Made by a program: the position numbers and the translations under genes. The notes under the pieces are model-generated. The model was not told the origin of the DNA. It saw only the letters and a program-made list of their open reading frames with translations, and did not search any database. A stretch of DNA of 64,000 bases from Flavobacteriales bacterium (lineage in GTDB: Bacteria; Bacteroidota; Bacteroidia; UBA10329), in NCBI GenBank assembly GCA_021741155.1, contig JAIOYP010000003.1, forward strand, positions 7,950-71,949, given 5' to 3'. Each line of letters begins with the position of its first letter. Within the stretch, counting starts at the first letter, position 1. Shown here one piece after another: positions 11,623 to 55,565 of this stretch.

Positions 11623-11648
11623 GACACTATAAATATTTTCAAAGAACG

Positions 11649-11722: not shown

Positions 11723-11795
11723 TTTTACTCTACTTCCCTTTAACCATGAGGCCTGTGGCGCTTTTGACACTTAGAACCTCCTCGAAAAAGGACTG

Positions 11796-31334: not shown

Positions 31335-32687
31335 ATGGAACTCAATGCTCTCTCGGCCGTTTCGCCAATTGATGGGCGTTACCGAAGACACACCAATTCG
31401 CTTTCTGATTATTTCTCTGAAGCTGCGCTGATTAAGTATCGCGTACGGGTTGAAATCGAGTATTTCATACAGCTTTGCGAACTGCCTTTGCCGCAGTTGA
31501 AAGACTTCGACAAATCGCTATTTCCAACACTTAGAAAGATTTATTCGGAGATTTCTGAAGCCGATGCGCAGCGTGTAAAGGAGATTGAGAAAACCACCAA
31601 TCACGATGTGAAGGCTGTGGAATATCTCATCAAAGAGAAAATGGAAACGCTTGGGATTGGCGAGCAAATGGAGTTCGTGCATTTCGGGCTTACCAGCCAA
31701 GACATCAATAATACCGCCACTCCGTTAATGATGAAGGAGGCAACGGAGCAGGTTTACATTCCACTTTTAGATGAGTTAATTGCGAAGCTAAGGTCGTTGG
31801 CCACCGAGTGGAAGGATATTCCATTGTTAGCACGAACCCACGGACAACCAGCCTCACCAACCCGTATGGGAAAGGAAGTGTACGTTTTTGTGGAGCGATT
31901 AGAAGCCCAGAAAAAGCAGTTGCTGGCCATTCCCTTCTCTGCCAAATTCGGTGGGGCCACAGGAAATTTCAATGCGCATTTTGTCGCTTATCCTAAATTG
32001 GATTGGGTTGATTTCGGAAACAACTTTGTAAACGGAACGCTTGGGCTGACCCGCTCGCAGACCACCACGCAGATTGAACATTACGACAACATTGCCGCCT
32101 GGTGCGATGCACTACGCAGGATAAACACCATCATCCTCGACCTTGACCGTGATGTTTGGACCTACGTATCAAACGACCTTTTCAAGCAGAAAATAAAGGA
32201 AGGCGAGGTCGGTTCTTCGGCCATGCCACATAAAGTTAATCCTATTGATTTTGAAAATTCGGAAGGAAACATAGGTCTTGCCAATGCGCTTTTCGGCCAC
32301 TTGGCAGAGAAGCTGCCTGTTTCGCGTTTGCAGCGCGATTTGACCGATAGCACCGTCTTACGGAACATCGGTGTGCCGTTGGGATATACATTGATCGCGT
32401 TCCGATCTACGCTGCGCGGATTGGAGAAACTTCTTATCAATGAGGACAATATCCGCAGGGAATTGGAGAACAATTGGGTGGTGGTGGCCGAGGCCATACA
32501 AACCATCCTCAGAAGGGAAGGTTATCCGAAACCCTACGAGGCATTGAAAGCATTCAGCCGAACCAATGCCAAGTTGGATGAGAAGGCGATGCTAGCGTTT
32601 ATCGATTCGCTGAATATTTCGGAGGCTGTGAAAGTGGAGATGCGTGCGATAACGCCTTTCAATTATACGGGGCAACCCCTCCCCTGA
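31335..32687 (+). CDS. purB: Adenylosuccinate lyase
   Basis: Start MELNALSAVSPIDGRY at 31335; HFGLTSQDIN, GSSAMPHKVNPIDFEN; last codons lie inside a repeat unit. Confidence 0.98.
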   Translation: MELNALSAVSPIDGRYRRHTNSLSDYFSEAALIKYRVRVEIEYFIQLCELPLPQLKDFDKSLFPTLRKIYSEISEADAQRVKEIEKTTNHDVKAVEYLIKEKMETLGIGEQMEFVHFGLTSQDINNTATPLMMKEATEQVYIPLLDELIAKLRSLATEWKDIPLLARTHGQPASPTRMGKEVYVFVERLEAQKKQLLAIPFSAKFGGATGNFNAHFVAYPKLDWVDFGNNFVNGTLGLTRSQTTTQIEHYDNIAAWCDALRRINTIILDLDRDVWTYVSNDLFKQKIKEGEVGSSAMPHKVNPIDFENSEGNIGLANALFGHLAEKLPVSRLQRDLTDSTVLRNIGVPLGYTLIAFRSTLRGLEKLLINEDNIRRELENNWVVVAEAIQTILRREGYPKPYEALKAFSRTNAKLDEKAMLAFIDSLNISEAVKVEMRAITPFNYTGQPLP

Positions 32688-32812
32688 CCCCAACTGACCC
32701 CCTCTAACTCCCCCAAAGGGGGAGAACCGATGCCTCGTTTAAACTTTTGCTTTAATCTCCAATCAACGCACTCCGAATTCCCCTTCCCTTCGGGGAGGGG
32801 TTGGGGGAGGCC
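32676..32812. repeat. GC-rich palindromic REP-like doublet element (intergenic) plus a partial unit
   Basis: Partial unit 32676-32691, left hairpin ctccccc-aaa-gggggag (32698-32726), AT-richer spacer, inverted right hairpin 32774-32810; homologous to copies in hutU and pheT. Confidence 0.9.
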
Positions 32813-32813
32813 G

Positions 32814-33794
32814 TCAATACTCGCTCTTCTTCCTTTTTCGCAACCAGATCTTCTGCCCTGCAATGGGTTCTTCGCCCGGATTGAGCTCGTTGTGCTTATA
32901 GAGCTGCTTCATCAGAATGCCGTATTCCTGCGATATCCACCGTAGGGTTTCGCCTGAGGCCACCATATGGTAATCGTGGCCACGGTTGCGGTTGCGTTTG
33001 GGCTGTAGGTAAATCAATTCTCCCTCATCCAATGGCGCACCGTTCGGCTTGTCGTTGTACCTCAGTATTTGCGCTTTCCGAACTTGGGTTAGGCGCTCCA
33101 GCTTTTCGTATGTATCGCCTTCTTCTACTCTCACATAGCGAATATCATTTCGCAAATACATTTGCCGTTGCGATGTAGAAACGAATGCCTCTTGCGGATT
33201 ATCTGTATTGTGCTTACCTCCCTTTGAACCCTTATCCTTAGGGATTTCTCCTCCTTTAGGTGGGGTTTTCATTCGGTCATATTTGTCGAGTTCGTTCTCT
33301 TCAATGATTTTAATCAGCAATGCCGGATACTTGGGGTTTGTGGCATATCCCGCTTCTTTCAGCCCATGGGCCCATCCTTTGTAATCGGTTATTCTGAGTT
33401 TGAAAAGACCGGCATAACGGTCGCGGCCACTCAAAAATTCGGAATGATCGCGATAGCTTTCGAACACATTCTCGTACACACGAAAGCACTCGCCCTTGGA
33501 GTCATCATCCATGTGAAACTTCTTTCCTTCCCACATGCCGTGGCACTTGATACCGAAATGATTGTTGGCCTTTTGCGCCAGCGTGCTGTTGCCATCACCA
33601 CTTTCGAGGATTCCCTGCGCCAGCGTGATGCTTGCCGGAACGCCACTTATCAGCATTTCCTTTACAGCATAGGGCGCATACATTTCGATGTACTCTGCAC
33701 GGGTCAGTTTATCTGAAGGCTGCGCGAGGTTGCTGCTTTGAGCAACCGCCACCAGATGTAGTGTGATGAGTAATTGAGAGAAGATACCACGCAT
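32814..33794 (-). CDS. Glucosaminidase (GH73/FlgJ-like) with LysM domains
   Basis: ASITLAQGILES, NNHFGIKC, GYATNPKY, LysM HMVASGETLRWISQEYG. Confidence 0.93.
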   Translation of the reverse strand: MRGIFSQLLITLHLVAVAQSSNLAQPSDKLTRAEYIEMYAPYAVKEMLISGVPASITLAQGILESGDGNSTLAQKANNHFGIKCHGMWEGKKFHMDDDSKGECFRVYENVFESYRDHSEFLSGRDRYAGLFKLRITDYKGWAHGLKEAGYATNPKYPALLIKIIEENELDKYDRMKTPPKGGEIPKDKGSKGGKHNTDNPQEAFVSTSQRQMYLRNDIRYVRVEEGDTYEKLERLTQVRKAQILRYNDKPNGAPLDEGELIYLQPKRNRNRGHDYHMVASGETLRWISQEYGILMKQLYKHNELNPGEEPIAGQKIWLRKRKKSEY

Positions 33795-33866
33795 GAGCCA
33801 AAAGTAGATGCCGCAAACAGCCTAACGTTTAATGGGCCTTGATGTTTTAAACACGCTTGTGTTGAT

Positions 33867-34883
33867 TTAGACCAGACCTCTATGCTTCATTCCCATCCAA
33901 CCTTGCAGGCCGCCTGTATGGATGGCGAGGATGGTGGTTCCCTTGAGTAAGGGCGTGTCGCGGCATGCCCCTACAGATTGCTTGTTCAGAATCATATCAT
34001 AGATGCCGAACATCATTTTGCCGGTATAAATGGGGTCGAGGGGAATACCGGTGCGTTCGGTGAAACCGTTGATGAAAGCCATGAGTTCGGGTTTCATCTT
34101 GGCGTAGCCTCCGAAATGGTAGTTGGTTGACAGTCCATAGTCCATGGTCGATGGCGGTCGTAAAGCAGATTCTCCCATTAGTCTTTCAACGTCTTCTTTG
34201 AGAAAGCCGCCACCTTTCAAGACAGGAAAGCCGATCAATCGCTGATCCCGTTTCAAGGTGAGGGCCAATCCGGCAAGGGTGGTTCCTGTTCCAGCCGCGC
34301 AGCACACAACATCAAAAGGTTCCTCCACCTCGGTCAAAATTTCGGCACAGCCGCGCACACCAAAGCCGTTGGCACCCCCTTCGGGAATGATGAAACAGCG
34401 ACCGAAACGATTTTTCAACTCACCCCCTGCTCCACTCGCGGAGCCTTCCTCCTCTCTTGCAAGAAAGGGGGTGTTTGCCTCTGGCAGATGGGGGTGAGTC
34501 AATTTCCGGTAATCCTCACGGGAAACAAACACCAACCGCATATCATTCTCCCTAGCAAATTGCAGGGTTGGGTTGCTGGGGTCGTCCTCTCCGCGGATAA
34601 TGCCGATGCTTTCCATCCCCGCCTTTTTGCAGGCATAGGCCGTGGCGGCAATATGGTTGCTATACGCCCCTCCGAAGGTGAGGATGGTATGATGGTTCTG
34701 CTGAACGGCCTCCGAAAGATTGTATTTCAGCTTGCGCCACTTGTTGCCGCTTATGTGTTCATGGATAAGGTCGTCCCGTTTGATGAGCAAACGCACTCCG
34801 GTGCCATCCAACAGCGGGTCTTTCACCTCCTGAACAGGCAATCCGGCAGGTCTGTACGATTTTGCGTAATCAATGGCATCCAT
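33867..34883 (-). CDS. PLP-dependent ACC deaminase / D-cysteine desulfhydrase family protein (carries in-frame repeat insertions)
   Basis: IKRDDL..SGNKWRKLKY, TFGGAYSNH, PEGGAN, GTGTTLAG, LDPIYTGK, IHTGGLQG. Confidence 0.92.
   Translation of the reverse strand: MDAIDYAKSYRPAGLPVQEVKDPLLDGTGVRLLIKRDDLIHEHISGNKWRKLKYNLSEAVQQNHHTILTFGGAYSNHIAATAYACKKAGMESIGIIRGEDDPSNPTLQFARENDMRLVFVSREDYRKLTHPHLPEANTPFLAREEEGSASGAGGELKNRFGRCFIIPEGGANGFGVRGCAEILTEVEEPFDVVCCAAGTGTTLAGLALTLKRDQRLIGFPVLKGGGFLKEDVERLMGESALRPPSTMDYGLSTNYHFGGYAKMKPELMAFINGFTERTGIPLDPIYTGKMMFGIYDMILNKQSVGACRDTPLLKGTTILAIHTGGLQGWMGMKHRGLV
33947..33974 (-). repeat. GTAG-type REP hairpin inside the CDS
   Basis: - strand GTAGGGGCATG-CCGCGA-CACGCCCTTAC, read in frame as VGACRDTPL. 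Confidence 0.75.
34126..34160. repeat. Heptamer tandem run inside the CDS
   Basis: gttgaca gtccata gtccatg gtcgatg gcggtcg; read as RPPSTMDYGLST on the - strand. Confidence 0.6.
34418..34499. repeat. 82-bp element with terminal inverted repeats inside the CDS
   Basis: actcacccc...ggggtgagt ends; internal hairpins cctctcttgcaagaaaggg and tgcc-tct-ggca. Confidence 0.8.
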
Positions 34884-35150
34884 CGGGGCAAAGGAAGCAG
34901 AAAAGCGGGGGTGCAGAAATCATTCCCACACATAAGCAGATGGTTTTTTCTTGAGGGAGAACCGTTCCGGAACGTAAGCGGATCATTTTTTCTTACCAAT
35001 GAATTATTTATTTGAACCGATTAATTATTAATTGGTGTTTTCTTTATATTTATTGGCATCAATTCGGAATATTACAATACCTTTTTTTATATCATTCATT
35101 CCATATAAATAATAAATTGTTTCCATTTTAATTTTCTTGTAATCGATTTT

Positions 35151-35768
35151 ATGAAAAGTGACTTCATTCCGATAAAACTTGTTGATATAGATGCTTGGGA
35201 AGGTAGATTTTTAACAGCCCTTAACCAGCAGGCAGCATCTTTAGGCATCACACCTCAGCAGCTTATTGATATAACGCAGAAAATCACCAACCACCGAGAA
35301 GCCTATGTGGCCGCTGAGGAGGCTAAGAAGGTTGCCAAGAGTAAAGTGGCCCACATGCAGGCGCTTAAAGTGGATACGATACGCTCCATCCGCAAGATGG
35401 TGCGCCAGATAAAGAGCAGTCCGACCTATGCGTCCGCCAATGCTCATTCTCTTGGAGTGATCGGCCCAGAAGACAGCAAGGAGCTCACCAGCCCTAAACT
35501 TAAGGCACGGTCAGTTGGTGGCAGAGCCGTTATCAGTTACCGCAAATACCGCAGCCACGGAATCTACCTATATGGCAAGCGCGGCAACGAAACTAGCCTA
35601 ACCCTGCTTGCTGTGGATACCCGCAGCCCCTATGTGGATACGCGTCCAAACCTAGACCCTAACGCCCCCGAGCAGCGCGAATATGCTGCCCGATATATGC
35701 TCAATGATGAACCCGTGGGTCAAATGGGAAACATTCATTTGCTGCTAGTGGCCCCAGGAGACCATTGA
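35151..35768 (+). CDS. Hypothetical protein (helical N-domain plus predicted Fn3-like C-domain)
   Basis: DFIP..W N-terminal motif, coiled segment, LGVIGP linker, HGIYLY.KRG.E..LLAVDTRSPYVDTRP; preceded by an AT-rich 160-bp leader. Confidence 0.75.
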   Translation: MKSDFIPIKLVDIDAWEGRFLTALNQQAASLGITPQQLIDITQKITNHREAYVAAEEAKKVAKSKVAHMQALKVDTIRSIRKMVRQIKSSPTYASANAHSLGVIGPEDSKELTSPKLKARSVGGRAVISYRKYRSHGIYLYGKRGNETSLTLLAVDTRSPYVDTRPNLDPNAPEQREYAARYMLNDEPVGQMGNIHLLLVAPGDH

Positions 35769-35818
35769 GCCAAAACCTTCAGCGACCTATTCTTGTTTAC
35801 TTTGCAAACGTGAACGAG

Positions 35819-35998
35819 ATGGACGATTATTTCGGAAAACCGAAGCTTGACCCTGATGATTTTTACTACTCCAAAGAAGGCTACATCGTCTTTACGGAAA
35901 AGTATCTGCTCAAACGGGGTTACTGCTGCAAGAATAGTTGCAAGCATTGCCCGTATGGGTTTGATAGGAAAACGGGCAGGATAAAGCCCCTCCCCTGA
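35819..35998 (+). CDS. DUF5522 family small Cys-rich protein
   Basis: DFYYSKEGYIVFTEKYLLKRGYCCKNSCKHCPYG; start re-called at ATG 35819. Confidence 0.85.
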   Translation: MDDYFGKPKLDPDDFYYSKEGYIVFTEKYLLKRGYCCKNSCKHCPYGFDRKTGRIKPLP

Positions 35999-36026
35999 CC
36001 CCTCCCCAAAGGGGCGGGGAATTCGG
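35987..36026 (+). repeat. Single REP-like unit of the GC-rich family, containing the DUF5522 stop codon
   Basis: cccctcccctgacccctccccaaaggggcggggaattcgg. Confidence 0.88.
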
Positions 36027-36059
36027 ATGGCGTAGATTTGATTATTGACCAAGTGATAA

Positions 36060-38273
36060 ATGGATTTTAAGACCGCAGTTTCAGAAGGTATTCCTAAGCA
36101 ACTTCCAGAAAGACGCCCCCTTGATGCGAGCGTGAGCCACGCCCCCAAACGCAAGGATATTCTCAGTGTCGATGACAAAAAACTAGCGCTACGCAATGCC
36201 CTGCGCTATTTTCCCAAGGAATGGCACGCCCAGCTTGTCGCAGAATTTGCCAATGAACTGAAGGAATACGGCCGCATTTACATGTATCGGTTTATGCCCG
36301 AATATGAGATGCACGCACGGCCAATCTCACACTATCCGGCCAAGTGCCAACAGGCGGCTGCCATTATGCTGATGATTCAGAATAATTTGGATCCTGCCGT
36401 GGCGCAACATCCACAAGAACTGATTACCTACGGTGGAAATGGAGCCGTTTTTCAGAATTGGGCGCAATATCGCCTCACTATGAAATACCTTTCTGAAATG
36501 ACCGAGGCGCAAACTTTGGTGATGTACAGCGGACATCCTATGGGATTGTACCCGAGCCATAAAGATGCACCGCGTGTCGTTGTAACCAACGGCATGATGA
36601 TTCCGAACTACAGCAAACCAGACGATTGGGAGAAATTCAACGCGCTAGGCGTTACCCAATACGGACAGATGACGGCTGGTTCCTATATGTACATTGGTCC
36701 GCAGGGAATTGTGCATGGAACCACCATCACCGTGCTGAATGCAGTCCGGAAACTGACCTCCCCCAACCCCTCCAATGGAGGGGAGAAGCACTCCGATTTA
36801 ACTTTATCTAAAACATCAAATCAAGGCACCCCGAATTCCCCTTCCCTTCGGGGAGGGGTCAGGGGTGGGGTTGGTCTTCCTCTTTTTGTGACCAGCGGAC
36901 TGGGCGGCATGAGCGGAGCCCAGCCAAAGGCGGGCAACATTGCAGGAGTTGTGACCATCTGTGCTGAGATAAATCCGGCAGCAGCCGAAAAACGTCATTC
37001 GCAGGGTTGGGTAGATGAGTTGATTAATGATGTGGATGTGTGTATTGATACCGCTATCGGGTTTCAAGCAAAGAGAAAAGCCCGAAGCATTGCCTTCGTT
37101 GGTAATGTGGTTGATTTGTGGGAACGCCTAGCGGAACGAAACATTCACGTTGATCTGGGTTCAGACCAAACTTCCCTACATAATCCGTGGGCTGGTGGGT
37201 ACTATCCCGTTGGTTTGACTTATGAGGAAAGCAACGCATTGATGGCGAAAGAACCAGAGGTGTTCAAGAAACGTGTACAAGAAACCCTTCGCAGACAGGT
37301 AATAGCCATCAACAAATTGGCGGCAAACGGTATGTATTTCTTCGATTATGGGAATGCATTTCTCCTAGAGGCGGGAAGAGCTGAGGCTGATATATGGACC
37401 TCCCACAACCCTTCCAAAGGAGGGGAGTTGCGCTCCGAACAAGCTTCATCTACACTTTCCAATCAAGGCACCAGTTCTCCCCCATTGGGGGAGTTAGAGG
37501 GGGCTGTTGGTGGGGCCGCTGGGGACGGTGCTTATCGCTACCCAAGCTATGTTCAAGACATAATGGGCCCCATGTGTTTCGATTACGGTTTTGGGCCATT
37601 TCGCTGGGTCTGTGCTTCTGGAAAAGAAGAAGACCTACAAGCCACCGATATCATTGCCGCCCAAGTCATAGAAGAAATGCTTTTGAGCGCGCCTGCTGAA
37701 ATTCGATCTCAACTACAAGACAACTTGCGTTGGGTTCAAGAAGCGCAAAAAAACAAGTTAGTAGTTGGGTCGCAAGCACGCATATTGTATGCAGATGCCG
37801 AGGGAAGAATCAAAATTGCAGCTGCATTTAATCAAGCAATCAAAGAAGGAAAAATTGGTCCCGTGGTTTTGGGTCGAGACCACCATGACGTATCAGGTAC
37901 AGATTCGCCCTACCGAGAAACGTCAAATATTTACGATGGCTCGCAATTTACTGCAGACATGGCAGTTCAGAATTTTGTTGGCGATGCCTTTCGTGGAGCC
38001 ACTTGGATAAGTCTTCACAACGGTGGTGGCGTTGGTTGGGGAGAAGTAGTAAACGGTGGGTTCGGAATGCTTTTGGATGGTTCTGACGATGCCGACCGCA
38101 GGCTCAGAATGATGCTTCATTGGGATGTAAACAACGGAATTTCGCGCAGAAGCTGGGCTCGAAACGAGGGGGCAATCTTTGCCGCCAAACGTGCAATGCA
38201 GCAAGAACCGAATTTGAAAATTACCATCCCCAACTTGGTTGATGATAGCCTCTTAGAAAATCTCGAAAAATAA
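36060..38273 (+). CDS. hutU: Urocanate hydratase (long Bacteroidota type) with two in-frame repeat insertions
   Basis: ELITYGGNG, YGQMTAGSYMYIGPQGIVHGT, GLGGMSGAQPKA, SDQTSLHN, FFDYGNAF, GRDHHDVSGTDSP, HNGGGVGWG. Confidence 0.97.
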   Translation: MDFKTAVSEGIPKQLPERRPLDASVSHAPKRKDILSVDDKKLALRNALRYFPKEWHAQLVAEFANELKEYGRIYMYRFMPEYEMHARPISHYPAKCQQAAAIMLMIQNNLDPAVAQHPQELITYGGNGAVFQNWAQYRLTMKYLSEMTEAQTLVMYSGHPMGLYPSHKDAPRVVVTNGMMIPNYSKPDDWEKFNALGVTQYGQMTAGSYMYIGPQGIVHGTTITVLNAVRKLTSPNPSNGGEKHSDLTLSKTSNQGTPNSPSLRGGVRGGVGLPLFVTSGLGGMSGAQPKAGNIAGVVTICAEINPAAAEKRHSQGWVDELINDVDVCIDTAIGFQAKRKARSIAFVGNVVDLWERLAERNIHVDLGSDQTSLHNPWAGGYYPVGLTYEESNALMAKEPEVFKKRVQETLRRQVIAINKLAANGMYFFDYGNAFLLEAGRAEADIWTSHNPSKGGELRSEQASSTLSNQGTSSPPLGELEGAVGGAAGDGAYRYPSYVQDIMGPMCFDYGFGPFRWVCASGKEEDLQATDIIAAQVIEEMLLSAPAEIRSQLQDNLRWVQEAQKNKLVVGSQARILYADAEGRIKIAAAFNQAIKEGKIGPVVLGRDHHDVSGTDSPYRETSNIYDGSQFTADMAVQNFVGDAFRGATWISLHNGGGVGWGEVVNGGFGMLLDGSDDADRRLRMMLHWDVNNGISRRSWARNEGAIFAAKRAMQQEPNLKITIPNLVDDSLLENLEK
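36752..36870. repeat. REP-like doublet inserted in frame in hutU (insertion 1)
   Basis: Left hairpin cccctcc-aat-ggagggg; right unit 36832-36870 identical over 39 nt to 53705-53743. Confidence 0.92.
37397..37505. repeat. REP-like doublet inserted in frame in hutU (insertion 2)
   Basis: Left unit cctcccacaacccttccaaaggagggg; right unit 37475-37503 is the reverse complement of 32698-32726 at 28/29 nt. Confidence 0.92.
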
Positions 38274-38305
38274 AAGCAGCGGAAGTATTACTACTTCCGC
38301 TGCTT
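38274..38305. terminator. Bidirectional terminator between hutU and the PID-CTERM-like gene
   Basis: 14-bp stem aagcagcggaagta-ttac-tacttccgctgctt. Confidence 0.82.
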
Positions 38306-38319
38306 CTTTATTCATTCAG

Positions 38320-38502
38320 TTACTTCTTATTGCGATTCAGCCGAACCGCACCGTATGCAACTCCTCCAACCATAAGCACCATGCTTAAAGCATCTAATGG
38401 TGCGCCTATAAGAGGTTGGCTAGGTGGCGGGGTTTGAGCAAATGCTTGCGCAATTCCCAACATCATGACCCCAATAAAGGTAATTCCAATTTTAAATTTC
38501 AT
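38320..38502 (-). CDS. PID-CTERM-like mini protein (signal peptide, Pro-rich linker, sorting TM segment)
   Basis: AFA-QTPPPSQPLIG-APLD-ALSMVLMVGGVAYGAVRL-NRNKK; 11 nt downstream of the T9SS cargo gene. Confidence 0.8.
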   Translation of the reverse strand: MKFKIGITFIGVMMLGIAQAFAQTPPPSQPLIGAPLDALSMVLMVGGVAYGAVRLNRNKK

Positions 38503-38513
38503 CGTTCCGAATT

Positions 38514-41500
38514 TTATTTGATCACCTTTTGAGAAGAAATCTCCCCGTTTGCAATCATTCTTACTACATAAACTCCCATAGACAGGCTAGACACATCGAC
38601 TTTTGCTAACCCGTTGGAGAAACCAACTGACCCAGAAGTCCAAACCATTCTGCCACTCATATCAAAAATCTCCAAAGCAGCCATCTCAACATTAGCTTTC
38701 GAAACCGTCAACATATCATTGTTGATGAACGCATGCATTGGATTCATTTGTACATCATACATACCCGTTACACTTGGCGTAGCAAAATGTAGGAAGAAAC
38801 GATCGTTGTAAGTAACCGCATTCGTTTGGAACACATATGAACCTTCATGTAAGTCTTGGAAAACATTCAAATGACGGTCTTCTAAGTAAATGATGTCGCT
38901 TTCCATATTGAAATTCGTATCCAGGCTTATAGTGACCATAGATTGAGTATTCGAAATATATCCTAACGGAACAATTCTATCAGGGAATAACGATCCATAA
39001 GCTTGAGTCACGTATGGAGTATTATCATCCATTAGACTGTAAAAACTATGCCCAGAGCCTAGATTAATTTTTGGAGTATCGTAAGACCAATCTGGTCCAT
39101 CTGTACCGTCCTCCAAAAATCCAATAGCCATTTGATTATATCGGCCTTCAGCATTAACTGCAGATAGCCATAACTTCTTAGCATCGCTTTGTCTAAATAG
39201 CATGTTTGTATTGCCAGCAACTCGCATTGCGTTGGTAAACTGAACACTGCCAGCTCCGTTCACTCTAACTTCAAAACCTTGAGCAGATCCAATTACTGGT
39301 CCCGGAGTGTTTCCACCGCCACCAGCAGTTTGCAACGTTGGATTCCAAACCGCAAAATCTTGCGAATCGTACGGAGTTGTTGCTGGACTATCCCATAGGT
39401 AAATTGAGTTTACAGAAAGGATTCCGCTGTTAGCTGACAAGAATGTTGCAGCGTCTATTCCACTTGGATAAGGATTACCAACCAAATTGAACGGAACTCC
39501 AGGCAACATTGGATCAGGATTGTTAAAATACTGAACCGGAATACTAACGTTACCGTTATTAACAGTACCAGTAAATGTTTCTACAGTGCTGGCAAATGCT
39601 GCATAGCCTTTACCAGGAATCATAGTAGCACCTGGTGCAACCCAACCTGGATCATGCAAATCATCAAACGGATCCGCAGTACTCAACTGTGGGTCGTAGG
39701 CATATGCCTGCCCAAAGATGTTTGTTGAAACAGTAGTTATTGGAGAACTCCAGAAATCGAAAACAGTACTTCCATTACGAGTTACGTTGTAGATACCTGT
39801 TCCTACTCGAGTACTTCCTGTGGCCTGTACCAAACTACCGCCAGAGGCAACATTTATAGTTCCATTATTTGTTAAAACACCTGTAACCGACAGAGAATGT
39901 CCACCTTGAATACTAACCGATGAACCAGTTGCAAGCGTAAGGGTTGCAATTGAAGCTGCCTCGTCAATAATTGGGAAGTTACCTCCAACTGGTGTGGTAG
40001 GAATGAACGCAACACCATTTGATGCTGGAACGGTTCCTTCACTCCAGTTACCATTGGTAGCCCAATCGTTAGCTACAGCGCTACCAGTCCATTCATTCAC
40101 ACCGCAGGTACGAGAGATTGTAAATGTTCCTGTTGTGGTGCTACCAGATAACCAATACGAGATATAAACATAATACCTTGTACCTAGAACAGTGGTAAAG
40201 GTGGCAGACTCACTTCCACCAGCATCATCAATGCAATTGACGTTAGACAGAGCACCACAAGTTCCTCTAGTAATCGACAATTCGATGTCAAATGTGGCGT
40301 CACAAGTGACCGTAGTACTGTATCCATTTCCAACAAACGTATACCAAACTCCAAATTGTCCCATGCTACACATTCCAATTGCACCAGAAACGAATGCTGG
40401 CTCAGGTCGAGACCATTCGGTAGTACCAGCCAAACCAGATGTTCCGCAAGGAAGCGAGATTGCGTTAGCGCACTCATCATTAGCCGGTGCTGGTGGCAAC
40501 GTTTTAATACAAATGTCTTGTTGCGAAAACGCCCCTGAACCTGCCCAAGTATACATTCTCAGGTAGTACGTATTTCCAGGAGTAAGACCGTATAAAATAC
40601 TTCCAGCGTTATCGTCACTACATACAATTGAAGTCATAGAAGAAGCACAAGCAGAACTAAATACCTGCCAGTAAATATCAGTGGATCCAGCAACGTATGT
40701 AAACTCTATGCTTAGTGCCGTTTCTGGGGCTACAAATGAGAACCATACATCATCATCAGGGTTGCCCGAGTTGGATGTACACGAACCCGTAGGTGTAACT
40801 CCTGAGTTTGTACCATTCAAAGTAGTTTGGTTTGAAAGTGTAGCACAAGTCTGGTTAGTAGGAATAACCGGGAATGGTGTTGCTGTGCTACAGTTGTCGT
40901 TTGCAGGCGGAACTCCCGATATAGTCCTTAGATTTCCCAATGCAGTACCAGTGGGGGTCACAACTGGAGTGGTAGTAACCGCTATGTTTCCAACTGGTGT
41001 TATCCTTGCGGTAATGGTTCGTCCAACCGTAGCCGTTCCGCTTACATCAGCAACCAAAAGATATCTTCGATTAGTACTGATTCCTGTTTGACCTGCTATA
41101 CCAAATGTCATGCTCGCAGCAAGTGCTTGCGCAGCGGTCGAAGCAAGCAAATCCGTTCCTACCTCGTACGTACCATTTGCATTCACATCTTGATAAATTC
41201 TAAAATTAGAAAGGTCTGCAGTTGTGGCTGTTCCAGTGGTTGTATAGGTTACAGAAGTCAGCGATGCTGATACGCAACCTGGAGCTAATTGAAAACCAGA
41301 GATAACCACATTGTTTGAGGACTGACCAATATTTCCTGCTGCAGGTGTTCCTGTATTACTAAGAACCAAAGCAGGGGTAGGACTAGTTACCTGAATATTG
41401 AAGGTTCCTCCTAAACCATCCCAATCCTGAACCATGACGTAATAAGTAGTTCCTGCAACTACTGTGGCAGAAGCTGTTTCGGAGGAAGTACTGAAACTAG

Positions 41501-45455: not shown

Positions 45456-45840
45456 GAAGTTCGAATTAAAATAAAGGGATAGTTGCGAAAAATAATGGGT
45501 ATTCGGCTGTTTGTTTAAGCGTATTGGCAATCTGCAGTACGTGATTTACGCAAATTGGACTGTGAAATAACGAAATTTTATCATTGATGTAACATGCCTA
45601 TTGCATTTATTTTTCTGGCAGACCACTAAATCTATCCTTTCAGCGAACATTTTTGTTCGACAAAACTGATTTTAGGCTTATTCGGTATTCGGTAACCTGC
45701 TATGAATTTTAATGTGATTTTACCCATCCAAGTCTTCGAGGCTTATCTATTTGGTTTTGCAATGCGTTATTGGCACTTAGAAAACCTCAATACCAGAGCG
45801 CGAGTACCAAGCGAAATAGGAATCAATTACTTTCACATCC

Positions 45841-46401
45841 ATGAAAGGGGTTATACTTTTCTCAATTTCATTGCTCAGCACCATCGCCATTCGTGCGCAA
45901 GAAACGAGCACCGAACCAACTTTTAACGAGCAGATACAACATCAACTTGGAGTAGGTTTTGCCATTACGGGTTTCCATTCTAGCTTCAGTTATTTTGTGT
46001 CGCCCCATTATTCGGTGCGGTATCATCGACATTGGTTTGGGTTTACGCCTTTCTATGGCCGCTTAGATGATGGGGTAAACCAACAAGATTTGGGCATTGG
46101 TCTTGATTATCGGCTCTATCCGTTTAAAAATCTTAACTCCACGCAACTCTATTTTCCACTTGGCTTATATTACAATTATAAGTGGAGTGAGCAAAGTCAA
46201 AAATCGGCTCTTATATATAAGGTAGGATTTGGAGTAGACAATCAGCTTGGAAAGCATTTTTCTGTTTCGCTTGATACGAACTTCGGTATTGGCCAAACGT
46301 TCTACTCGAACATAGAAACGAGCGAATCGGCTAGTTTTGGTCCATCCAAAGATTTGAACTTCTATTTCCTACCTGTAATCAGAATAGCCTACAACCTGTG
46401 A
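45841..46401 (+). CDS. Hypothetical secreted protein, probable outer-membrane beta-barrel
   Basis: Signal peptide, amphipathic beta-strands, C-terminal RIAYNL. Confidence 0.65.
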   Translation: MKGVILFSISLLSTIAIRAQETSTEPTFNEQIQHQLGVGFAITGFHSSFSYFVSPHYSVRYHRHWFGFTPFYGRLDDGVNQQDLGIGLDYRLYPFKNLNSTQLYFPLGLYYNYKWSEQSQKSALIYKVGFGVDNQLGKHFSVSLDTNFGIGQTFYSNIETSESASFGPSKDLNFYFLPVIRIAYNL

Positions 46402-50028: not shown

Positions 50029-50156
50029 CTTCCGAAAACAGAATAATCACATAAGAATCAGCCGTAAATATGGGCTATTTTTAACGAAGGCATGTAGCTC
50101 ATTTGTATTGCGCGAATGGAGTTGAATCAGTGTGCCAAGGCTAGTTAGTAGGATAA

Positions 50157-52358: not shown

Positions 52359-52391
52359 AAGTAATCCTCTCTATCGTTGAATTTCTATCCG

Positions 52392-52421
52392 TATTTTTGT
52401 AATCACTTAGTAATTACAAAA
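52392..52421 (+). promoter_or_regulatory. TA operon promoter with overlapping palindromic operator
   Basis: TATTTTTG -7 box (52392-52399) overlaps ttttgtaatcact-t-agtaattacaaaa (52395-52421, one mismatch). Confidence 0.7.
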
Positions 52422-52660
52422 TGAAAATTCCAATAATTAAGATCGGCAACTCAAAAGGGCTTCGCATCCCGAAAATGCTCATCGACAGATATGCATTTGA
52501 AGAAGAGGTGGAGGTGGAATTGACAGACGAGGGTCTGGTGGTGCATCCGGTTAAGAAAGTACGTCAAGGTTGGGGTGACGCCTTTGCCAAAATGCACAAG
52601 AACGAGGATGATGTGCTGTTAATGGATGATATATTCAGCGATGAGGAATGGGACGATTGA
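52421..52660 (+). CDS. AbrB/MazE-family antitoxin
   Basis: IIKIGNSKGLRIPK..R.GW..AF; acidic tail. Confidence 0.9.
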   Translation: MKIPIIKIGNSKGLRIPKMLIDRYAFEEEVEVELTDEGLVVHPVKKVRQGWGDAFAKMHKNEDDVLLMDDIFSDEEWDD

Positions 52661-52980
52661 GTGTTGAACAATATGCGGTGGTACTGATCAACCTTGACCC
52701 AACAATAGGAAGTGAGATCAAAAAGACCCGTCCATGCTTGATCATCTCTCCAATCGAAATGAACCAGCACCTACGAACCATAGTTATTGCACCCTTGACC
52801 ACCACCATGCGCAAATATCCTTCGCGCGTCAAAGTGCATTTCTCGGATAAGGAAGGTATGATCGCATTGGACCAAATTCGCACCATTGACAAGCAGCGAA
52901 TCATCAAAACTTTAGGCGGCATCAAACCAAGTGAAATAAAAAATGTGAAAGAGGTATTGATGGAAACGTATGTACGCTAA
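52648..52980 (+). CDS. PemK/MazF-family mRNA interferase toxin
   Basis: NLDPTIGSEIKKTRPCLIISP, DQIRTIDKQR; start 52648 (ATG) or 52657 (TTG). Confidence 0.92.
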   Translation: MGRLSVEQYAVVLINLDPTIGSEIKKTRPCLIISPIEMNQHLRTIVIAPLTTTMRKYPSRVKVHFSDKEGMIALDQIRTIDKQRIIKTLGGIKPSEIKNVKEVLMETYVR

Positions 52981-55565
52981 CCCCTCAAAACCGCGCCAAC
53001 TTCCTGTTCAAATCGCTGTTGGAGTCGGTTCATGGTTTTTTCGATAGTCTTATCGTTAAGGGTGGCTTTCTCATCCTGAAGAATGAAACTCATGGCGTAG
53101 GAGCGCTTGCCTTCTGGTACGCCTTTTCCTTCGTACACATCAAACAAATCAACCTCTTTGAGAATGTTTCTTTCTGTTTGAAAAGCAAGTTGCTCTAGCT
53201 GGGCGTATTTCACGGTCTTGTCTACGAACAGAGCTAAATCTCTTCGAACCGAAGGATACTTGGCCAACTCGGTTACTTCAATCGAATTTAGTGCGGAACG
53301 TTTTAGGACCAAGTCCCAATCGAAATCGGCATAGAACACCTCTTGGTCGATATCAAAAGCCTCAAGAACATCTGCATTGACCAGACCGAAATTGGCGAGG
53401 AGCTTTCCGTCCTTGGTTCGGAATTCCATGCCATAAGCATAGGCTTTTGTGCCCGTCACGTCATGCAACTGTGCTTCGATTCCAAGTCTGTTTAGAATGG
53501 ATTTTACCGCGCCATGAATATGATGGAAAGTGGCATTTCCTGCCGCAGCATTCCAACGTTCCTTCTGCCACCTGCCAGTGATGAACAGTGCCAGAGAACG
53601 GTGTTCGCTGTAAGGCCAAACAACCCCATCGGCCCCCGCCCCCTCCAAAGGAGGGGAGGTGCGCTCCGATTTAACATTACCAGAATCGTCCGACCGAGTC
53701 ACCGCGAATTCCCCTTCCCTTCGGGGAGGGGTCAGGGGTGGGGCTTGCTTCCCTTCTTTGGAGGGGTTGGGGGAGGTTTCATACAGATTTCCGAATTCGT
53801 AGAATTTGCAGTTCAGATTCTGATGTCGGATGTTACGCGAAACGCTTTCCAAACCTCCAAAAAGCAATGACTGACGCATGGCGTTGAGGTCGGTACTGAG
53901 CGGATTCAGAATCTCCACCTTAGCATTGGCCTGTTCTGGAAAAAGCTTGTCCATGTAACTCGCTTTCGTCAGCGAATTGTTCATGATCTCGTTGAAGCCT
54001 TGGGCCGTCAACGCATCCGAAACCAAGTTGCGCAACTGCTCTGGGCTTTTCTTATTGGAAGCAATCAACGGTACGCGTAATTGTCCGCTGCCCAAGATGC
54101 GGTCGTAGCCATAAACGCGGAGTACCTCTTCAATCACATCAGCTTCGCGGGTCACATCATTCTTGAAGGACGGCACGGAGAGTTTCAGCCCGTCTTCCCT
54201 CTTCTTCTCCACATAAATACCCAGATCATCGAGAATGGAAAGCACGGTTTCCTTGGGAATGTCCTGCCCGATGAGTCGGTTGATATTGGCAAACTTCACC
54301 TCCACCTTTTGGTGCGGAATCGGATTTGGATAGATGTCGGTGATGACAGACAGTTTTCCGCCAGCAACTTCCTGAATGAGAAGGGCGGCACGTTTAGCTG
54401 CATAAACAACCGTTTCGGGGTCGATTCCTCGCTCAAACCGGAAAGAAGCATCGGTGCTCAATCCATGACGTTTGGCCGTTTTTCGGATGGAAACAGGATT
54501 AAAGTAGGCGCTTTCCAAAAACACATTCTTGGTTTTTTCGGTCACACCTGAGTTCAATCCACCAAACACACCTGCAATGCACATACCATCGCTTGCATTG
54601 CAAATCATCAAATCATCTTGATTCAAATCTCGTTCAACTTCATCCAACGTGGTAAATTTCTCTCCTGTCTTGGCTGTGCGTACAACTACTTTATGATCTT
54701 TAATCTTATCGGCATCAAACGCATGCAGCGGCTGACCCAGTTCGTGCAATACGAAATTGGTGACATCAACCACGTTATTAATAGGCCGAGCGCCAATGGC
54801 TTTCAGTCGATTTTGCAACCAAGCTGGCGATGGTTTTACTTCAATTCCTTGAATGTAAAGCCCAACGTAACGCGGACAAGCCTCCAAATCCTGCACATCG
54901 ATGGCGATTGGGTTCTCCTTCAATTCGGCCGAATAGCCCATCACATCAGGCCATTCCAATTTCAGGTTTTCGTGACCACCTTTTATCTCACGGATAACAG
55001 CTCTCAGGTCGCGCGCCACGCCAATATGGCTCATGGCATCGGCTCGGTTTGGCGTGAGACCTATCTCGAGCACAAAATCATTTTCAATCTTGAAATACTC
55101 GGAAGCCGGTGTCCCAACCTTTACATCGGCAGGAAGAACCATGATACCATCGTGGCCCTGGCCTAGGCCAATCTCATCTTCGGCACAAATCATCCCTTCA
55201 GATACTTGCCCTCTAATTTTCGATTTTTTAATCTCAAACGGCTCTCCTTCTGATGGATACAGCTTTGCTCCGACCACAGCTACAACTACCTTCTGCCCTG
55301 CTGCAACATTTGGCGCGCCACAAACGATATCCAACGGTTCACCTGTTCCAATATTCACTTTGGTGCAGTTAAGACGATCGGCATCGGGGTGTTTTTCCTT
55401 GCTCAAAACTTCGCCAATAACCAGTCCTTCTAAACCGCCTTCCACAGACGAAAAAGGGATGACTTTTTCTACTTCCAAACCGCTTCCCGTTAGGAGCGCG
55501 GCCGCTTCGTTCACGTCAAGGTTGATAGGTAAATATTGGCGAAGCCAGTTGTAGGAAATGTCCAT
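52977..55565 (-). CDS. pheT: Phenylalanine--tRNA ligase beta subunit with an in-frame repeat insertion
   Basis: HPDADRL, VCGAPNV, GLTPNRADA, GQPLHAFD, RFERGID, PSVRRDLA FDX-ACB domain; 862 aa. Confidence 0.98.
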   Translation of the reverse strand: MDISYNWLRQYLPINLDVNEAAALLTGSGLEVEKVIPFSSVEGGLEGLVIGEVLSKEKHPDADRLNCTKVNIGTGEPLDIVCGAPNVAAGQKVVVAVVGAKLYPSEGEPFEIKKSKIRGQVSEGMICAEDEIGLGQGHDGIMVLPADVKVGTPASEYFKIENDFVLEIGLTPNRADAMSHIGVARDLRAVIREIKGGHENLKLEWPDVMGYSAELKENPIAIDVQDLEACPRYVGLYIQGIEVKPSPAWLQNRLKAIGARPINNVVDVTNFVLHELGQPLHAFDADKIKDHKVVVRTAKTGEKFTTLDEVERDLNQDDLMICNASDGMCIAGVFGGLNSGVTEKTKNVFLESAYFNPVSIRKTAKRHGLSTDASFRFERGIDPETVVYAAKRAALLIQEVAGGKLSVITDIYPNPIPHQKVEVKFANINRLIGQDIPKETVLSILDDLGIYVEKKREDGLKLSVPSFKNDVTREADVIEEVLRVYGYDRILGSGQLRVPLIASNKKSPEQLRNLVSDALTAQGFNEIMNNSLTKASYMDKLFPEQANAKVEILNPLSTDLNAMRQSLLFGGLESVSRNIRHQNLNCKFYEFGNLYETSPNPSKEGKQAPPLTPPRREGEFAVTRSDDSGNVKSERTSPPLEGAGADGVVWPYSEHRSLALFITGRWQKERWNAAAGNATFHHIHGAVKSILNRLGIEAQLHDVTGTKAYAYGMEFRTKDGKLLANFGLVNADVLEAFDIDQEVFYADFDWDLVLKRSALNSIEVTELAKYPSVRRDLALFVDKTVKYAQLEQLAFQTERNILKEVDLFDVYEGKGVPEGKRSYAMSFILQDEKATLNDKTIEKTMNRLQQRFEQEVGAVLRG
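53631..53778. repeat. Three REP-like units inserted in frame in pheT
   Basis: Units at 53631-53658 (+), 53705-53743 (-) and 53751-53776 (-); spacer gcgctccgatttaac matches 36788-36802. Confidence 0.93.

Follow-up and report, generated by a model that had tools for sequence, protein, structure and literature searches.

BoxC-type triplex-motif repeats read in frame within housekeeping genes of a Bacteroidota genome and their association with DUF559 nuclease genes

The repeats dispersed through the window, a 64-kb stretch (64,000 nt) of a Bacteroidota genome that was analysed as a whole, can be assigned by their unit layout to the G/C-rich intrastrand triplex motif class (BoxC / PIT / TM), and are MITE- or REPIN-like. 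The analysis revealed that a BoxC-type repeat forms part of the open reading frames of housekeeping enzymes, whereas the class has been known as an intergenic repeat. Elsewhere, the repeat brackets genes for DUF559 nucleases, a new link that provides the first candidate mobility enzyme for the BoxC/triplex motif class. We consider it somewhat better than an even chance (about 0.55) that the window repeats are non-autonomous derivatives of a DUF559 element and are mobilised by its nuclease.

Hairpin units and their host genes

A total of ten hairpin units were detected in the window, nine of which pass the strict motif test (finder pattern: C-rich stem, loop of 3-7 nt, complementary G-stem, loop of 1-5 nt, mirrored G-stem), with the tenth, at 53748-53777, being a decayed copy. 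The same search in 100 dinucleotide-preserving shuffles of the window gave a mean of 0.02 units and a maximum of 1. The units are arranged as four inverted doublets and one half element (Table 1), with about 50 nt of spacer separating the (-) unit of a doublet from the (+) unit that follows, and element lengths ranging from 115 to 155 nt. Three doublets are read in frame, two in hutU and one in pheT. Every coordinate and identity in the first-pass annotation proved correct on checking: the 39-mer at 36832-36870 recurs at 53705-53743 (39/39 bases), its first 28 nt are found again at 32774-32801, and 32698-32726 and the reverse complement of 37475-37503 agree at 28/29 positions. The spacer motif AATCAASGCAC occurs only at 32761, 36819 and 37461, and GCRCTCCGA only at 32768, 36788, 37430 and 53661.

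Table 1. Repeat elements and host genes in the window; units marked (-) or (+) are those returned by the structural finder on that strand.
Feature	Position	Strand	Description
purB	31335..32687	+	adenylosuccinate lyase; likely start 31335; C-terminal QPLP and stop from E1
E1	32672..32812	.	inverted doublet, units 32698-32725(-) and 32780-32812(+)
E1 partial unit	32676-32691		CCCCTCCCCTGACCCC
E2	35984..36061	-	half element, unit 35987-36019(-) and spacer remnant
hutU	36060..38273	+	urocanate hydratase, 737 aa; hosts E3 and E4
E3	36756..36872	+	117-nt doublet, units 36757-36784(-) and 36838-36870(+); hutU site 1
E4	37398..37512	+	doublet, units 37399-37425(-), partly decayed, and 37476-37503(+); hutU site 2
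pheT	52977..55565	-	phenylalanyl-tRNA synthetase beta chain, 862 aa; hosts E5
E5	53628..53780	+	doublet, units 53630-53657(-) and 53711-53743(+), plus decayed extra unit 53748-53777

E3 covers aa 233-271 of HutU (TSPNPSNGGEKHSDLTLSKTSNQGTPNSPSLRGGVRGGV) and E4 about aa 447-490, while E5 is read through by pheT from the opposite strand as ETSPNPSKEGKQAPPLTPPRREGEFAVTRSDDSGNVKSERTSPPLEGAGADG. As a correction to the first-pass annotation, two further copies also touch coding sequence. E1, located where purB and a glucosaminidase/LysM gene converge with their 3′ ends, gives purB its final four codons and TGA stop, and E2, located between a DUF5522-like ORF (35819-35998) and the hutU ATG at 36060, contributes the KPLP end and the stop of that upstream ORF. 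The proposal that coding copies occupy surface loops is supported indirectly, with the inserts lying between Pfam domains (in HutU, the N domain at 84-210, the Rossmann-like domain at 275-444 and the C domain at 507-710) and in alignment gaps against solved structures.

Reading frames, empty sites and age

The claim of in-frame insertion was borne out, with hutU reading through two elements and pheT through one. The coding copies have retained an open reading frame: of the six frames of E3, only the one used by hutU is free of stops, and in the intergenic E1 stops interrupt five of six, a pattern suggesting that the open frame of the coding copies may be under selection. The common starting frame of the coding copies was likewise observed but has to be reinterpreted, as it results from spacer stop codons and, in the case of pheT, from an additional unit. 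In pheT the same doublet lies in the opposite orientation, and the shared TSPNPS start therefore comes from this additional unit; the pheT copy has lost a stop codon that is present, in the frame concerned, in the E3 spacer.

Empty sites, which had been proposed as a check, were found in relatives in pheT, at the 3′ end of purB and in the two hutU loops. The first two are empty in the syntenic relative L124, where the purB stop codon overlaps that of its neighbour, and both hutU sites are empty in the relative L123. The same pheT loop is occupied by an element in the other orientation in L125, L127 and L128, and E2 is present in L124 in decayed form. Among 113 HutU orthologues, inserts were observed at site 1 in 18, at site 2 in 19 and at both in nine; length differences are confined to these two loops, and the 145 residues between them are constant in length. 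E3 and its L124 counterpart differ at 6 of 122 nt (5%) and at 1 of 29 fourfold-degenerate sites, against 51% of the fourfold-degenerate sites of hutU overall, indicating that E3 is young or homogenised rather than an old peptide. Four of the five changes inside E3 alter the amino acid, all five fall in the loop or spacer and none in the stems, and the flanks of E3 diverge between relatives right up to the element ends. The earlier description of a dispersed, recently active, ORF-less repeat is thereby upheld in its main points, and its gain among relatives is patchy and recent.

Known repeats and the link to DUF559 genes

The earlier view that such a system is undescribed did not hold, as the unit has the architecture of BoxC, PIT or the "triplex motif" (PMC4666352); the core of the window unit is found across many phyla. 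These repeats have been reported from E. coli, cyanobacteria and Neisseria (PMC4666352; also Bergler 1992; Hoyne and Maher 2000). BoxC has been known for 30 years as an intergenic repeat lacking an explanation. The window units and these repeats share the order of C-stem (about 9 nt), loop (3-6 nt), complementary G-stem, second loop (about 3 nt) and mirrored G-stem, and the window layout agrees with the published 9-3-9-3-9 pattern (PMC4666352); both are multi-copy, often in inverted pairs of two unit types, more conserved in stems than in loops, and patchy among close relatives. The differences lie in the Bacteroidota host and in sequence, CCCCTYCCC...GGGGAGGGG in the window against CCCTCNCCC...GGGNGAGGG in TMECO. 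Between a window unit and E. coli TMECO #9, 27-31 of 36 bases are identical. For E. coli K-12, all TMECO copies were reported to lie between genes, without a mobility gene in the vicinity (PMC4666352), whereas six of the ten window units are read in frame inside enzymes, and presumably translated, and the units bracket DUF559 genes, E. coli ycjD included.

Other systems share single traits with the repeat. Rickettsia palindromic elements are, in outline accounts, 100-150 bp palindromes lying in frame in unrelated housekeeping genes and read as an extra peptide (Ogata et al. 2000; PMC10969869); they belong to another phylum, appear to differ in sequence and have no known enzyme partner, while the window units are G/C-tract triplex motifs occurring in many phyla. 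REPINs are likewise inverted hairpin doublets scattered genome-wide (Bertels and Rainey 2011, PMC3116915), and in both systems the same units flank a nuclease gene, which is single-copy in E. coli, with unit copy number in E. coli going with presence of the gene; however, RAYT is a Y1 (HUH) transposase rather than a PD-(D/E)XK DUF559 nuclease, REPINs are extragenic, and the GTAG/CGTC tag is absent here. Vsr-like (EDxHD) homing endonucleases such as I-Bth0305I have a related nuclease fold, to judge from a weak profile match, and invade fixed sites in conserved housekeeping genes across taxa, as at hutU site 1, but reside in group I introns or inteins, which are removed by splicing (PMC3239194, PMC2677866). 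In the HutU-DUF559 protein P0083, by contrast, only urocanase and DUF559 domains were matched, no intron or intein is apparent and the element is read through, and copies lacking the ORF are present at many unrelated sites. The ShiLan element also bears a nuclease, is open in frame with its host gene and has no recognisable intron or intein, but has an HNH endonuclease and a phage methylase gene as host; its abstract-level description contains neither hairpin/triplex-motif ends nor a dispersed ORF-less family (PMC11855218). The recurrent potential G-quadruplex sequences of Methanomicrobiaceae are likewise repeated, are built from the same sequence elements as the window units, two G4-type tracts adjoining a GGGGAGGGG / CCCCTCCCC hairpin, and can switch structure in vitro, and differ in their archaeal hosts, mirrored strand order and intergenic-only location, with no gene link proposed (PMC8044849).

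As the first-pass annotation stated, the 64-kb window contains no mobility enzyme; its hint of DUF559/Vsr-like genes flanked by the units proved right, only outside the window. In one relative (L001/P0083), a complete DUF559 ORF lies in frame at hutU site 1, bounded by a 37-nt imperfect inverted repeat that holds the hairpins. DUF559 with units also occupies in-frame positions in an IleRS-like gene (Saprospiraceae genome L019) and a Tgt-like gene (Saccharibacteria genome L043), and an intergenic position in a Parcubacteria genome (L056). Twelve DUF559 loci were sampled without reference to the hairpin (L001, L129, L131, L133, L137, L140, L142, L143 and L144-L147), E. coli ycjD among them; all 12 carry units no more than about 250 nt away, in most cases in the form of terminal inverted repeats. 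Window and DUF559-flanking units match at 28-30 of 34 bases, and in about a third of the 120 DUF559 ORFs called, one end continues into palindrome-coded peptides. The profile of DUF559 hits PDB 3HRL (E 7e-28) and, weakly, the homing endonuclease I-Bth0305I (PDB 3R3P, E 0.03). To our knowledge, transposition or homing activity has been demonstrated for no DUF559 protein. These proteins are otherwise regarded as Vsr-like mismatch-repair nucleases (Caulobacter VsrA, PMC12907096).

Of the 23 TMECO copies in the 4.6-Mb E. coli genome, #9 is located 168 nt downstream of ycjD, the DUF559 gene of that genome. This gene replaces the eefRABCD operon at one site, the operon having been lost independently at least twice (PMC12817139), and is missing in 38% of complete E. 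coli genomes. Near-identical copies of TMECO #9 number a median of 4 in genomes with ycjD and 1 in those without it, a correlation that follows phylogroups, the genomes being non-independent observations.

Proposed mechanism and competing explanations

In the reading that we favour, the autonomous form would be a small DUF559 (Vsr-like, PD-(D/E)XK) endonuclease gene between the inverted units, whose product may nick or cut DNA at, or guided by, the structure-prone units, with repair then copying the element into the break. ORF-less doublets as in the window would be moved in trans by the nuclease, or might be remnants left after ORF decay at a site invaded earlier. The units are C and G runs coding Pro/Gly/Ser-rich peptides and are stop-free in five or six frames, so coding insertions can survive where they have a length divisible by three, bring no spacer stop into the host frame and fall in a tolerant loop or inter-domain linker; a surviving insert would be translated as an extension of 35-50 residues. 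Several results weigh against a DUF559 origin: the window itself has no DUF559 gene; the same lineage yielded no DUF559 copy that has exactly the window's spacer or termini, L001 coming closest with other hairpin sequences; DUF559 is lacking near most of the 126 unit sites that were sampled in various phyla; and comparison of inserts with empty sites gave no clean target-site duplication, the inserts replacing about 7-9 loop codons. The similarity between the spacer and the DUF559 ORF 3′ end is borderline given 35 comparisons.

The order unit, DUF559, unit would also arise if a DUF559 homing-endonuclease gene invaded doublets without moving them, the doublets having spread through a trans-acting transposase elsewhere or through structure-induced breaks with replication/repair template switching. 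This is a possible though distinctly less probable explanation. It fits the position of DUF559 in place of the spacer of the ORF-less form, the absence of the ORF from most unit sites, the enzyme-free local instability tied to TM motifs in E. coli (PMC4666352), and the tandem unit arrays that differ in copy number between samples (L133 vs L135; L131), as slippage would produce. However, it requires a second agent besides DUF559, no transposase family recurs near the 126 unit sites, and the higher unit copy number in ycjD-positive E. coli is unpredicted by it unless the nuclease depends on the units. We regard as improbable that these are classical REPINs or MITEs moved by a RAYT (Y1) or IS transposase elsewhere, with the DUF559 association incidental, though the inverted doublets and multi-copy dispersal are REPIN-like and the transposase check of the host's own genome covers 64 kb. 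The window holds no Y1, RAYT or IS transposase, and the RAYT/Y1 gene suggested earlier was found near none of the copies; no such transposase recurs in 67 unit-adjoining ORFs from 120 loci in many phyla, and Holder et al. (PMC4666352) report all TMECO sites to be free of transposases and integrases. By inspection, the units also lack the GTAG/CGTC tag that outline descriptions give for REP superfamilies (PMC3733652), and unit flanking at 12 of 12 independently sampled DUF559 loci makes an incidental link hard to accept.

Quite unlikely is an origin without mobile DNA, in which HutU and PheT would have inherited the inserts vertically as old loop extensions, retained for a useful peptide or mRNA structure, such as linkers or translational pauses at domain borders. 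Both hutU sites do lie at domain boundaries, the same loops hold inserts in many orthologues, and the conservation of E3 far above synonymous sites could equally result from nucleotide-level selection. Against this stand the 39-nt end common to unrelated genes and intergenic sites, the patchy presence in four roughly equidistant relatives, the predominance of non-synonymous changes in E3, the two orientations at one loop, and the emptiness of either HutU loop in about 84% of orthologues. GC-rich hairpin repeats are hard to sequence and assemble, yet the chance that the inserts are assembly or binning artefacts from repeat-induced chimeric joins is negligible, as the same elements occupy the same sites in independent assemblies (L124 for hutU; L125, L127 and L128 for pheT), and the inserts in many HutU orthologues of different origin are always in frame.

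Palindromic units of the window and the triplex-motif class

Nine units were detected in the window by a structural finder for the full unit, which requires a C-rich stem followed by a loop, a complementary G-stem, a second, short loop and a mirrored G-stem; 100 dinucleotide-preserving shuffles of the window yielded 0.02 units on average and never more than one. A tenth unit is decayed. One example unit reads CCCCTTCCC TTC GGGGAGGGG TCA GGGGTGGGG. The units form four inverted doublets and one half element (E1–E5, listed in the table), in the order of (-) unit, spacer and (+) unit, with the extra G/C tracts facing outwards, and the elements are 115–155 nt in length according to a reading of three regions and repeat detection in the window. 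The sequence identities reported in the first-pass annotation were reproduced: a 39-nt stretch is the same at 36832-36870 and 53705-53743, its first 28 nt recur at 32774-32801, and 32698-32726 matches the reverse complement of 37475-37503 at 28 of 29 positions. AATCAASGCAC and GCRCTCCGA, two words of the spacer, were likewise recovered, at three and four sites respectively, and are absent from the rest of the window. DNA hairpin folding gave z-scores of only -0.6 to -2.3, which carry no weight here because any sequence of C and G tracts folds well.

Positions of the repeat elements and other features in the window
Feature	Position	Strand	Description
E1	32672-32812		element
E2	35984-36061		half element
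E3	36756-36872		element
E4	37398-37512		element
E5	53628-53780		doublet plus one extra unit
Tenth unit	53748-53777		decayed
tRNA gene cluster	9930-11727		around tuf
Further tRNA gene	59095-59151
Xer-like gene	12866-13762		sole recombinase in the window
Hammerhead_II match	32898-32955	-	inside the glucosaminidase gene
2338-aa ORF	38514-45530	-	between hutU and pheT
Tandem repeats	41722-42420		399 nt, 92% identical
MazF/PemK-type toxin ORF	52648-52980	+	110 aa, Pfam E 1e-26

The first-pass annotation knew of no such system described for this group of bacteria; the unit itself has an architecture published under the names of BoxC, PIT and TM for a G/C-rich intrastrand triplex motif. BoxC goes back to a 1992 finding at envM (fabI) of E. 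coli, PIT elements date from 2000, and TM, or TMECO, was described by Holder et al. in 2015 (PMC4666352). The published layout of a C-rich stem of about 9 nt, a loop of 3–6 nt, a G-stem, a loop of about 3 nt and a mirrored G-stem (PMC4666352) was found in nine window units, which are also multi-copy, dispersed and paired in inverted order, and five inverted A+B pairs are reported among the TMECO sites of E. coli K-12 (PMC4666352). The window family is a member of this known class, of which it represents a new sequence subfamily with a new habit. TMECO counts 3610 copies in 262 proteobacterial genomes, its copy number varies strongly between strains and the motif is tied to local instability, while for transposases or integrases near it Holder et al. 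state 'We never found' (PMC4666352); a mirrored version of the motif is repeated in methanogenic archaea (PMC8044849). Though the architecture is shared, the sequence subfamily differs, as the TMECO consensus CCCTCNCCC-N3-6-GGGNGAGGG-N3-GGGNGAGGG is not matched by the window units, whose stems are CCCCTYCCC / GGGGAGGGG and which are identical to TMECO copy #9 at 27–31 of 36 positions. The 23 TMECO copies of K-12 are reported as intergenic without exception (PMC4666352), whereas the window units lie mostly in genes, location being a habit that stands outside the structural definition.

Other known systems were compared as well. With less than 300 bp, no ORF and terminal inverted repeats, the elements have the size and structure of MITEs, and similar termini (28–30 of 34 positions matching) occur on elements of other genomes that carry a gene of DUF559 (PF04480), a family of small Vsr-like nucleases, the window itself holding none. 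The likeness to Rickettsia palindromic elements is one of behaviour only, namely in-frame palindromic inserts.

In-frame insertion into HutU and PheT

The window has a G+C content of about 44%, and its genes include rpoB, ribosomal protein genes, tuf, CTP synthase, YidC, purB, hutU and pheT; the nearest HutU sequences belong to metagenome-assembled genomes labelled 'Flavobacteriales bacterium'. Of the ten units, six are inside hutU and pheT, and two more provide stop codons. E3 and E4 are read through in frame by hutU and E5 by pheT, which bears out the in-frame insertion into enzymes claimed earlier. E1 sits where purB and a glucosaminidase/LysM gene converge and supplies the QPLP tail and TGA stop of purB, and E2 supplies the KPLP* end of a small DUF5522-like ORF upstream of hutU.

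Alignment with relatives, which had been proposed as a way of finding empty sites, did reveal them. The syntenic relative L124, with a HutU 85% identical, lacks E1, both stop codons overlapping there, and lacks E5, its PheT reading YEFGNVYGLSGKEKWPYEEH; E2 is decayed in it, E3 is present, and E4 carries one additional unit. In a further relative, L123, hutU sites 1 and 2, the loops that hold E3 and E4 in the window, are both empty. Length variation in 113 HutU orthologues is confined to these two loops, with inserts of ≥8 residues at site 1 in 18 orthologues, at site 2 in 19 and at both sites in nine, and the 145 residues between the sites are constant in length. Nearly all HutU inserts contain palindrome-coded peptides (SPNPSKGGE, PPLxGG, PSPKGRE), and the ORF-less inserts span 39–51 codons. 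The predicted surface-loop placement has indirect support: HutU residues 234-274 and 450-490 are alignment gaps against the solved structure 6uek, PheT residues 594-657 are one against 3pco_B, and the HutU inserts also fall between Pfam domains, while the AlphaFold model of HutU (31 sequences, mean pLDDT 55), in which the inserts are low-confidence coil as is much of the core, is too poor to add support. No clean target-site duplication was found against the empty sites, and each insert replaces about 7–9 variable loop codons. A doublet of opposite orientation occupies the same pheT loop in three metagenome contigs, and in one orthologue (P0009) the element at hutU site 2 is read antisense.

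The copies are recent or homogenised, in keeping with the earlier view of a recently spreading repeat. The window, L124, L123 and another relative, L128, are about equidistant, with fourfold-degenerate sites differing at 0.44–0.55, and they share the inserts only patchily. Between the window and L124, E3 has 6 differences over 122 nt and a single one in 29 fourfold sites, compared with a fourfold difference of 0.51 over the whole of hutU. All five internal changes are in a loop or the spacer, none in the stems, and four of them alter an amino acid; the host sequence is diverged right up to the element ends. Such near-identical DNA with mostly nonsynonymous changes and diverged flanks indicates that the peptide of E3 is not under selection, and E3 would either have entered recently at the same site in both lineages or be held constant at the DNA level. 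The insert at hutU site 1 of L128 (gene at 8499-10661 (-)) has a homologous spacer, and both of its hairpins are altered yet palindromic (CCCCTCCTTTGAAAGGAGGGG, CTCCCCTTTTCAGGGGAG), so that stems evolve by compensatory change or are replaced. A metagenome scan with a lineage-specific 27-mer returned four loci, which are informative for pheT and too few for a coding versus intergenic count, and a profile search with the element-coded peptide gave no match at E ≤ 1e-3.

It had also been noted that the in-frame elements begin in the same frame. The C/G-tract units are free of stops in five or six frames, the only possible stop being TGA or TAA on the C-rich strand when the second loop is TCA or TTA, and the remaining stops of the elements fall in the spacer. 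Open-frame selection is evident in the copies: E3 is open in one of six frames, namely that of hutU, intergenic E1 has stops in five of six, and the pheT copy no longer has the stop expected in its frame from the E3 spacer. This is the pattern that selection on read-through would produce, and together with the distribution of stops it accounts for the common frame. The second loop is mostly TCA, TTA or CTA, which are complementary to the three stop codons, and the C-rich strand consequently has a stop in one frame. Both purB and the DUF5522-like ORF terminate on such a TGA (CCCCTCCCCTGA; 32676-32691, 35987-35999), and ycjD, the DUF559 gene of E. coli, stops at a TGA located within the first loop of a unit that is decayed (L141/L143).

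DUF559 genes bracketed by units in other genomes

With one genome per species, the core CCCCKYCCCTTYGGGGAGGGG was found at ≥120 loci. The phyla among the matches listed include Firmicutes, Bacteroidota, Chloroflexota, Desulfobacterota, Proteobacteria, CPR groups and others, several copies per genome are common among them, and their conservation does not stop at the palindrome but runs on in the 3′ direction through another GGGGNGGGG tract. About six of the 126 unit sites at the loci listed are in frame in real proteins, the hosts being the IleRS of Tenacibaculum, a second IleRS- or ValRS-like gene, a Tgt gene, a trigger-factor-like linker (Nomurabacteria), a glutamine amidotransferase of Prevotella and a response-regulator linker, while the other sites adjoin unrelated housekeeping genes. 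Two of the 67 ORFs beside units (loci L003-L122, possibly not independent) belong to the uracil-DNA glycosylase superfamily, which acts in mismatch/uracil repair.

Genes of the DUF559 type flanked by the same units, which it had been suggested to look for, were found in other genomes. The HutU orthologue P0083 (836 aa) from locus L001 contains a whole DUF559 domain at site 1, and its precomputed Pfam domains are three urocanase domains and DUF559 only. In the DNA, the DUF559 ORF has its own ATG and is flanked by a 37-nt imperfect inverted repeat containing the hairpins, and the left end recurs by itself 1.4 kb downstream. Among the core matches listed, DUF559 occurs at three hairpin loci, each time directly beside units: in frame in an IleRS-like gene of Saprospiraceae, in frame in a Tgt-like gene of Saccharibacteria and between genes in Parcubacteria. 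A DUF559 ORF lies between inverted units at L001, L019, L056, L133, L145, L146 and L147. A protein search with the DUF559 domain yielded 1485 homologues, the best 120 of which are 119–203 aa long and 60–68% identical to the query, come from several phyla where a source is named, and in about one third of cases run into palindrome-coded peptides at one end. Eleven DUF559 loci were chosen independently of the hairpin, seven from the protein matches (L129, L131, L133, L144-L147), one on a viral contig (L137) and three from annotated records (Picosynechococcus plasmid pAQ6, N. gonorrhoeae and E. coli ycjD), and L001 was added. Units of the window type are present within about 250 nt in all 12 of these loci, usually as terminal inverted repeats made of an outer hairpin, an inner variable hairpin and GGGGTGG, so that DUF559 is strongly associated with the units in a range of phyla. 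Two distant homologues (28–37% identical) have no units, and a scan of viral contigs with the DUF559 profile gave three loci. The same profile matches 3HRL, a structural-genomics entry, and has a weak match to the homing endonuclease I-Bth0305I.

Tandem arrays of units are often found downstream of DUF559 genes, the repeat period being 67 nt, about 150 nt or about 280 nt (L133 versus L135, ~1918-2140; L131, 1930-2270; L142, 2000-2700); their copy number varies between samples of one locus, and the repeats of the Vitreoscilla locus include copies of the last 18–23 codons of the DUF559 ORF. Many units carry a single fixed stem mismatch, which in the window is T·G at 32780, 36838 and 53711 (CCCCTTCCC/GGGGAGGGG) and G·A in the E2 unit at 35987 (CCCCGCCCC/GGGGAGGGG); of the 23 copies in E. 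coli K-12, 13 likewise have G·A (TMECO 'type A mm'). Vsr is a T·G mismatch endonuclease to which DUF559 is related, and given this kinship the fixed mismatches are suggestive. Caulobacter VsrA, a DUF559 protein, is a Vsr-like endonuclease able to cause DNA damage (PMC12907096), and other functional work on DUF559 proteins was not found in the literature searched.

In E. coli, the gene order is sapF, ycjD, TMECO #9 and fabI, and we estimate the chance of a TMECO copy within 300 nt of a given gene at about 0.003 (23 copies in 4.6 Mb). The gene is accessory, being present in 3378 of 5426 complete E. coli genomes (62%). In a spread sample of 60 genomes, near-identical copies of the TMECO #9 unit had a median of four with ycjD versus one without, and a further 281 genomes have no copy of this unit; the copy-number difference follows phylogroups and supports the link without proving it. 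Phylogroups A, B1 and C have ycjD in the exact place of the eefRABCD efflux operon, as do ST69 and ST182 through a separate event, so that at least two replacements are reported (PMC12817139), which fits an element entering or rearranging one site more than once; in phylogroup B2 ycjD is absent. The 3′ end of ycjD is not dispersed in E. coli and has a local duplicate only.

Origin of the elements and further features of the window

On the best-supported reading, the window elements would derive from a DUF559 element with triplex-motif ends and lack its ORF, and the loops that they occupy would be permissive enough for them to be tolerated and translated. That DUF559 moves the doublets, and by which route, we infer. 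The wider proposal, to which we give a probability of roughly 0.4, is that DUF559 proteins are the mobility enzymes of the BoxC/PIT/triplex-motif repeats, and that both together would form a selfish element class across bacteria, in which a nuclease gene between structure-forming G/C-tract inverted repeats sheds ORF-less doublets that settle in loops of HutU, PheT, IleRS and Tgt without splicing. Nearly stop-free ends encoding Pro/Gly-rich peptides would permit this settlement in loops of essential proteins. If true, it would be a third way, beside introns and inteins, for a nuclease element to live in a gene; in contrast to inteins and group I/II introns, no splicing domains were listed for P0083 around its DUF559 domain (Pfam), and no ribozyme was found in the elements of the window at 32500-37700 (Rfam).

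In the main rival, the doublets spread by some other route and DUF559 acts as a homing gene that inserts itself into them. A remnant of the DUF559 ORF in the E1 spacer may be suggested by its match to the 3′ end of the L001 ORF (22 of 27 positions, with none of 200 shuffles as good, among 35 comparisons and with a conflicting second match), and we regard it as no more than a lead. A RAYT-type mobiliser outside the window, among the genes that the first-pass annotation had advised looking for, would make the family similar to REPIN-RAYT and is a less probable alternative, with nothing pointing to one: in that system RAYT is flanked by the repeat, whereas the 64-kb window has none and no transposase family, RAYT included, recurs among the 67 ORFs beside units at the core matches listed, and the GTAG/CGTC end tag is absent from the window units by inspection. 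The earlier statement that the window itself has no candidate mobility enzyme was upheld, with no DUF559 gene (tblastn), Y1 transposase or IS transposase found in it. Vertical inheritance of a useful peptide and an assembly artefact are both contradicted by the data.

The repeat class, and in-frame palindromic inserts as a phenomenon, are already known. The presence of triplex-motif units in housekeeping proteins, both in Bacteroidota and in further phyla, appears to be new, as does, above all, the systematic pairing of such units with DUF559 genes, and searches for DUF559, ycjD and the hairpin sequence, in mostly non-subscription literature, gave no paper linking DUF559 to these repeats. BoxC/PIT/triplex-motif repeats have been known since 1992, with thousands of occurrences in hundreds of genomes, and to our knowledge neither an origin nor a function nor a mobility enzyme has been established for them. 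In-frame palindromic repeats in housekeeping enzymes were, as far as we know, previously known mainly from Rickettsia palindromic elements, and we know of no function assigned to E. coli ycjD. The window adds Bacteroidota housekeeping enzymes with units of this kind predicted to be translated, and the other loci add a consistent bracketing of DUF559 nuclease genes, ycjD included. If the link is causal, it would explain an old orphan repeat class, give the very large DUF559 family a role and open the question to ordinary genetics in E. coli K-12. For annotation, length variation of conserved enzymes in Bacteroidota and CPR can be repeat insertion rather than error or a new domain.

Further decayed elements were sought in the PALP, glucosaminidase, YidC and TPR/PD40 genes by comparison with L124, and none was convincing. 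An Rfam search of 32500-37700 (E ≤ 5) gave only a weak Hammerhead_II match outside the elements (20.2 bits, where the gathering score is 37; E 1.5), which is most likely due to chance. The tRNA genes, seen as repeat families D3, D7, D11 and D19, are ordinary, and a T9SS-associated galactose-binding domain is present among the window ORFs (Pfam scan). The 2338-aa ORF and the genes up to 52358 are missing from the syntenic stretch of L124. The MazF/PemK-type toxin ORF overlaps the 3′ end of pheT at 52977-52980, and a PemK gene is also located near hutU in the relative L001 (7285-7617).
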